The notes under the pieces: generated by a model
What the model was told of the DNA's origin: nothing
Seen by the model: only the letters and a program-made list of their open reading frames with translations
The model's database searches: none
Program-made: the position numbers and the translations under genes
Origin: Escherichia coli
GTDB lineage: Bacteria > Pseudomonadota > Gammaproteobacteria > Enterobacterales > Enterobacteriaceae
Reading direction: 5' to 3' (one strand)
Assembly: GCF_045037415.1 (NCBI RefSeq)
Contig: NZ_CP173438.1
DNA length: 64,000 bases
Shown here: piece after piece, positions 23,289 to 24,170 of the stretch
Layout: every line of letters starts with the position of its first letter
Position numbering within the stretch: position 1 is the stretch's first letter

Positions 23289-23316
23289 ACTATAGCCCCT
23301 TGTATTTTTCTTTGAA
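23289..23316 (-). promoter_or_regulatory. candidate sigma70 promoter of the DeoR regulator-kinase operon
   Basis: Minus strand reads TTCAAA, 16-bp spacer, TATAGT, about 20 nt upstream of the regulator ATG. Confidence 0.4.
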
Positions 23317-23407
23317 AGTTATCCTTCAATCATATCGACAATTCGAAAAGAAGGTGATGCTGCCAACTTACTGATTTAGTGTATGATGGTGTTTTTGAGG
23401 TGCTCCA

Positions 23408-23683
23408 GTGGCTTCTGTTTCTATCAGCTGTCCCTCCTGTTCAGCTACTGACGGGGTGGTGCGTAACGGCAAAAGCACCGCCGGACATCAGCGCTATCTC
23501 TGCTCTCACTGCCGTAAAACATGGCAACTGCAGTTCACTTACACCGCTTCTCAACCCGGTACGCACCAGAAAATCATTGATATGGCCATGAATGGCGTTG
23601 GATGCCGGGCAACAGCCCGCATTATGGGCGTTGGCCTCAACACGATTTTACGTCACTTAAAAAACTCAGGCCGCAGTCGGTAA
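23408..23683 (+). CDS. insA: IS1 InsA
   Basis: 91-aa [40 protein letters not shown]. Confidence 0.93.
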
Positions 23684-24105
23684 CCTCGCGCATACAGCCG
23701 GGCAGTGACGTCATCGTCTGCGCGGAAATGGACGAACAGTGGGGCTATGTCGGGGCTAAATCGCGCCAGCGCTGGCTGTTTTACGCGTATGACAGGCTCC
23801 GGAAGACGGTTGTTGCGCACGTATTCGGTGAACGCACGATGGCGACGCTGGGGCGTCTTATGAGCCTGCTGTCACCCTTTGACGTGGTGATATGGATGAC
23901 GGATGGCTGGCCGCTGTATGAATCCCGCCTGAAGGGAAAGCTGCACGTAATCAGCAAGCGATATACGCAGCGAATTGAGCGGCATAACCTGAATCTGAGG
24001 CAGCACCTGGCACGGCTGGGACGGAAGTCGCTGTCGTTCTCAAAATCGGTGGAGCTGCATGACAAAGTCATCGGGCATTATCTGAACATAAAACACTATC
24101 AATAA
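23602..24105 (+). CDS. insB: IS1 InsB frame, expressed as InsAB' by -1 frameshift
   Basis: 167-aa ORF in the -1 frame relative to insA; slippery ttaaaaaac at 23657-23665. Confidence 0.9.
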
Positions 24106-24170
24106 GTTGGAGTCATTACCATCGAAACGTTCATCCAGCGCCATGACATGTCCATTCGGGAAGCAGCACA

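Follow-up and report, generated by a model that had tools for sequence, protein, structure and literature searches.

An IS1 element in place of 5,519 bp of the D-tagatose locus of Escherichia coli and the very probable origin of three neighbouring TYGAAA strings

The part of the window (the whole 64-kb stretch of Escherichia coli DNA analysed here) that concerns us contains the minus-strand genes tagK and tagR, a short intergenic remnant, a complete IS1 element, the end of tagD and the tagE gene (Table 1). It is the D-tagatose (tag) locus already described for phylogroup B2 of E. coli, which lies between accC and yhdT and which K-12 lacks (Ha et al. 2022, PMC9720028). The gene names tagK-tagR and tagYABCDE are those of Park et al. 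2025 (PMC12226905), where TagR is a repressor. Its protein sequence carries the Pfam domains HTH_DeoR and DeoRC. In the IS-free allele, as found in strain SK1144 (locus L001), yhdT is followed by a PfkB sugar kinase (tagK), a DeoR-family regulator (tagR) and a 340-bp spacer. After the spacer come a class II tagatose-bisphosphate aldolase, a substrate-binding protein, an ABC ATPase, a permease, a second PfkB sugar kinase and an aldose-1-epimerase family protein (together tagYABCDE), and then accC. With the two sequences flanking IS1 joined as one query, the locus was found in 1,421 of the 5,426 complete E. coli genomes, and in all 1,421 the two flanks are two separate places. The tagR-tagY region of E. 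coli Nissle 1917 (Park et al. 2025, PMC12226905; Ha et al. 2022, PMC9720028) has the same yhdT-accC position, genes and DeoR-family repressor TagR as the window. In contrast to Nissle 1917, only the 82 bp nearest to tagR (23271-23352) are kept in the window, where IS1 replaces Ptag, the CRP site, tagO1, tagO2 and tagYABC-tagD'. The G+C content of the tag island (L001 4605-13100) is 46%, versus 51% for the window, and that of the deleted part is 44.5%. The low value for the island agrees with the proposal of Ha et al. (PMC9720028) that it was acquired horizontally.

Table 1. Features at the interrupted tag locus. Positions are those of the window, except for the last two lines, which refer to the SK1144 locus (L001).
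Feature	Position	Strand	Remarks
tagK, PfkB sugar kinase of the reg cluster	21473..22408	-	intact; translation identical to SK1144 WP_001296457.1
tagR, DeoR-family tagatose-responsive repressor	22440..23270	-	intact; 276 aa, identical to SK1144 WP_000843962.1
Preg -10 box TATAGT	23289..23294	-	consensus scan; conserved in orthologues
Motif 1, tttgaaag, contains the Preg -35 box TTCAAA (23316..23311)	23311..23318	-	consensus scan
Motif 2, ttcgaaaag	23342..23350	+	poorly conserved spacer DNA upstream of Preg; ends 2 nt before the left end of IS1
Complete IS1 (IS1A type), 768 bp	23353..24120	+	insA, insB', A6C frameshift site, both inverted repeats
insA	23408-23683	+	ORF
insB'	23602-24105	+	ORF
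A6C -1 frameshift site, ttaaaaaac	23657-23665	+	
tagD (D-tagatose kinase) remnant	24121..24174	+	last 17 codons and stop; starts at L001 12004, codon position 1 of CDS 11095-12057
Motif 3, atcgaaacg	24121-24129	+	first three codons of the tagD remnant, ATC GAA ACG = Ile-Glu-Thr
tagE, aldose-1-epimerase family (DUF4432)	24171..25217	+	intact; translation identical to SK1144 WP_000787058.1; Pfam DUF4432 match
Distal tagO-like site, CTTGCAAAGTGAAAAA	L001 6576-6591	+	17.5 bits
Distal tagO-like site, CTTACAAAAAATAACT	L001 6599-6614	-	9.1 bits

The IS1 element shows 100% identity to numerous copies annotated as IS1A, which are of the active type. Its terminal inverted repeats lie at 23353-23375 (left, GGTGATGCTGCCAACTTACTGAT) and 24098-24120 (right, GGTAATGACTCCAACTTATTGAT), with 0 such matches expected by chance. 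No target-site duplication of 8-9 bp was found at its ends, the adjoining 9 bp being CGAAAAGAA on the left and ATCGAAACG on the right. The element itself is complete, and the lack of a duplication is explained by the associated deletion described below. A simple IS1 insertion in tagD of E. coli strain 20409 (NZ_CM190155.1, L022 7001-7768) served as a control: it is flanked by an exact 8-bp duplication, AAATATTC. The two cases share the operon and the orientation of IS1. They differ in that the insertion of strain 20409 has a duplication, no deletion and other junctions, whereas the window has a deletion and no duplication. As the insertion in strain 20409 is independent, IS1 has inactivated the tag operon at least twice.

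Comparison with SK1144 gives the extent of the deletion. The left flank in the window ends at L001 6484, at the point where ACAATTCGAAAAGAA is joined to AATCATGGG in the IS-free allele, and the right flank starts at L001 12004, where CTTATGGAA is followed by ATCGAAACG. The two flanks are thus 5,519 bp apart in SK1144. The 64-kb window contains no 20-mer from these 5,519 bp. Of the 340 bp between tagR and tagY, 258 bp have been lost, and with them Ptag, the CRP site and both predicted operators (tagO1 and tagO2). The deletion also takes tagY, tagA, tagB and tagC and, from tagD, the first 909 of its 963 nt. To the left of IS1, tagK and tagR are still present with the regulator promoter Preg; to the right there are a tagD stub of 54 nt and intact tagE. 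Identity to SK1144 is 100% in both flanks, over 6,484 nt (left) and 12,600 nt (right). This complete identity, together with the intact state of tagK, tagR and tagE, argues for a recent deletion event. Taken together, the window very probably represents the B2 D-tagatose locus in which one IS1 now replaces 5,519 bp, whereby three TYGAAA strings have been brought together.

The intervening DNA could have been lost by an IS1-promoted adjacent deletion, i.e. by intramolecular transposition, or alternatively by recombination between two direct copies of IS1; the final sequence fits both routes. We infer the order of events at the IS1 deletion from the sequence. Classic cases of IS1-promoted adjacent deletion are reportedly those described by Reif and Saedler in 1975 in the gal region. 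As in such deletions, a single IS1 is found in the window at the junction of ancestrally non-neighbouring sequences, without target duplication. The window differs from them with regard to the intermediate allele (IS1 at one junction, with a duplication and an intact operon), which was found neither in the complete E. coli genomes nor in the metagenome collection, and recombination between two IS1 copies would fit equally well. Neither IS1 junction is present in any of the 5,426 complete E. coli genomes, and exact scans of the metagenome collection gave 0 matches for the left junction and 0 for the right. The event is therefore known from one sequence only. An exact look-up of TagR returned intact loci only, and neither of the two 43-aa ORFs that run across the right junction is on record. 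The finding is of an already known kind: an IS1 deletion scar of the textbook sort, in a published locus and beside a published -35 box.

The first-pass annotation had noted three strings sharing a TYGAAA core on both sides of IS1 (motifs 1, 2 and 3), and their positions were found to be correct. It had proposed that they are direct-repeat operator half-sites of one divergent promoter now split by IS1. This is suggested by the common core and by the nearness of the strings to the ends of IS1, and the element does indeed lie inside the regulatory region upstream of tagR. However, the region is not simply split, the right flank being 5,519 bp away in IS-free genomes. Motifs 1 and 2 belong to the tagR-tagY intergenic region, and motif 3 lies outside it, within the C-terminus of TagD (which ends in LMEIETFIQRHDMSIREAAQ followed by the stop codon), 5.5 kb from the promoter in the intact locus. 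Motif 3 consists of in-frame tagD codons and has therefore never been part of a promoter; it also has no match to the tagO matrix described below. Enrichment of the core was rejected as well: TYGAAA occurs 68 times in the window versus 92.8 +/- 9.7 times in dinucleotide-preserving shuffles, and is thus under-represented. An exact 6-mer common to a 45-nt left flank and a 12-nt right flank of a 768-bp gap is found at 6.7% of random positions. The shared core does not exceed chance expectation, and the reading of all three strings as half-sites of one split promoter is almost certainly wrong, being refuted by the IS-free allele. A second proposal, in which motifs 2 and 3 would be what is left of an IS1 target-site duplication after decay, has a negligible probability. 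In its favour, TCGAAA is located within 10 nt of both IS1 ends. The two copies are nevertheless out of register, the left one lying 4 nt and the right one 1 nt from the end of IS1, and each is unchanged ancestral sequence, single-copy at its own site in the IS-free allele. There are 0 substitutions in 19 kb of flanks, which leaves no time for decay, and the genuine IS1 duplication in tagD of strain 20409 is exact. Register and IS-free sequence thus refute a decayed duplication.

IS1 favours AT-rich targets. The likeness of the flanks could then reflect target preference, as both IS-free breakpoints read GAA/A(A)TC in an A-rich context (AAAGAA/AATCATG on the left and ATGGAA/ATCGAAA on the right, with the slash at the breakpoint). 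This explanation is improbable: it relies on two sites noticed after the fact, the chance frequency of 6-mer matches given above speaks against it, and the third IS1 site in the tag locus, AAATATTC, is without the string. It is less probable still that the deletion is an assembly artefact, in which the assembler would have merged two IS1 copies, one on either side of an intact tagYABCD. Such a collapse is conceivable because most E. coli genomes contain several copies of IS1 (median, 11 places per genome). However, the sequence shows no sign of it, and IS1 would have had to insert twice, independently and in direct orientation, into one operon. Rather than one repeated signal, the TYGAAA strings are three pieces of sequence without relation to each other. 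This result corrects the over-reading of a 6-mer.

Motif 1 has a meaning of its own. A consensus scan of the minus strand found TTCAAA, a 16-nt spacer and TATAGT, and the overlap of motif 1 with a -35 box, already remarked upon in the first-pass annotation, is confirmed, since TTCAAA is the published -35 box of Preg. The Preg of Nissle 1917 is the same as that of the window in -35 box, spacer and -10 box, and dRNA-seq has placed its transcription start 11 nt upstream of the ATG of tagR (PMC12226905). Orthologous loci were collected from other genera, and nine intergenic regions between tagR and tagY were aligned. The Preg elements are conserved in 8 orthologues, and a block of 13 nt at 23305-23317 (TTTTTCTTTGAAA) shows no variation among 8 orthologues, which represent 5 genera. 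Klebsiella spallanzanii (L019) and Izhakiella (L020) were left out of this alignment. Their TagR homologues show 72% (K. spallanzanii) and 57% (Izhakiella capsodis) identity. Neither locus has a divergent tagatose-bisphosphate aldolase within 3 kb, and their gene context is therefore different.

The predicted TagR operators tagO1 and tagO2 (Park et al. 2025, PMC12226905) were used to build a tagO matrix from 16 tagO1 and tagO2 sites, with CTTWCAAAAYGAARRW as consensus; these training sites score 20-25 bits. The octamer CTTWCAAA starts both predicted operators. It is found four times in the 24.6-kb intact locus, all within the 340-bp intergenic region (motif 1, a distal site, tagO1 and tagO2). 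In the 64-kb window it is found once, versus 5.5 expected, on the minus strand at motif 1. With the matrix, motif 1 on the minus strand (CTTTCAAAGAAAAATA) scores 8.6 bits and ranks 11 of about 128,000 window positions. It matches the whole left half of the consensus, and the right half YGAAAG is absent. The tagO sequence CTTTCATTTTG presumably resembles the T-rich TTTC-repeat consensus for AgaR. According to Park et al. (PMC12226905), a similar arrangement of CRP and repressor sites exists for the operators of this DeoR-family protein in the E. coli aga cluster. AgaR is, however, a different regulator and acts for a different sugar.

In intact loci a second convergent pair of tagO-like sites is seen about 100 bp upstream of tagO1/tagO2 (Table 1). 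This pair is not among the sites named in Park et al. 2025 (PMC12226905), and it falls within the DNA deleted from the window. Its Superficieibacter equivalents score 25.2 and 15.4 bits, and the minus-strand site is conserved in 7 of the 8 close orthologues. The distal pair may allow looping. In Lelliottia nimipressuralis (L021), whose TagR homologue is only 38% identical and whose paired divergent aldolase is 70% identical, a tagO-like site of 20.3 bits, ATTTCAAAATGAAAGT, is located on the minus strand at intergenic positions 43-58. This is the position of the regulator promoter, and the predicted site suggests autoregulation in that system.

The half-site reading of the three strings can thus be kept as plausible for motif 1, which has the octamer CTTTCAAA in common with the predicted tagO1/tagO2, and not for motif 2, which scores poorly, or motif 3, which is coding. 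Motif 1, perhaps helped by motif 2, could be a weak predicted TagR half-site on the -35 box of Preg through which tagRK would be mildly autoregulated, and it could also join looping with tagO1/tagO2 and the distal pair where the locus is intact. We regard this as a tentative possibility, less likely to be right than wrong. Several observations speak for it: the restriction of CTTWCAAA to the intergenic region in the intact locus (4 of 4) and its single occurrence in the window; the invariant block TTTTTCTTTGAAA, which runs 6 nt past the -35 hexamer into the spacer; the full site of the Lelliottia homologue at the motif 1 position; and an 83% direct repeat formed by the motif 1 block with the distal site. 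In addition, tagRK expression rises about two-fold on tagatose (PMC12226905). On the other hand, motif 1 reaches only 8.6 bits versus 20-25 for tagO1/tagO2 and is without the right half of the operator. Its conservation is confounded with its role as a -35 box, and motif 2 has a score of -0.1 bits on the relevant strand in the window lineage. More generally, it is possible, though doubtful, that TagR recognises more than the two published sites, namely a CTTTCAAA half-site on the Preg -35 box for autoregulation and the distal convergent pair for DeoR-style looping. In that case only the Preg half-site would be left in the window strain. [quoted passage not shown]

A search for the motifs in orthologous intergenic regions, as called for by the first-pass annotation, gave a mixed outcome. 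Motif 1 is invariant but is also a -35 box, and the TTYGAAA core of motif 2 is present, with base changes, in 5 of the 9 aligned loci. The corresponding segment reads TTTTGAAA in three of four relatives and CTTTGAAA in the fourth (Superficieibacter); B2 E. coli has TTCGAAA here, and 3 Trabulsiella lack the segment. On the minus strand, motif 2 scores -0.1 bits in the window versus 10-15 bits in three relatives. It is probably degenerate in the window lineage, judging from the matrix, with some relatives having a better version. Its best score, 5.7 bits on the plus strand, comes from a match that takes in 3 IS1 bases; motif 2 was for this reason not counted as an operator.

Without Ptag, the CRP site and both predicted operators, and with aldolase, transporter and kinase also lost, the strain should be tagatose-negative. 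As summarised in PMC12226905, the tag cluster is essential for growth on tagatose (Ha et al., PMC9720028). We thus predict that the window strain is unable to grow on D-tagatose. B2 E. coli typically use D-tagatose, a trait that would here have been lost via an IS1 event. The repressor-kinase pair tagR-tagK is orphaned with its own promoter kept, and TagR is a repressor without its operon. The tagE gene is without Ptag and lies directly downstream of insB' in the same orientation. Its expression, if any remains, would need read-through from IS1 or a weak promoter-like site at 24143-24172.

Elsewhere in the window, a complete rRNA operon was found at 145-5498, with 16S, two tRNAs, 23S, 5S, a tRNA and a second 5S, a layout that resembles E. 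coli rrnD. A StyR-44 match is located just upstream of its 23S gene.
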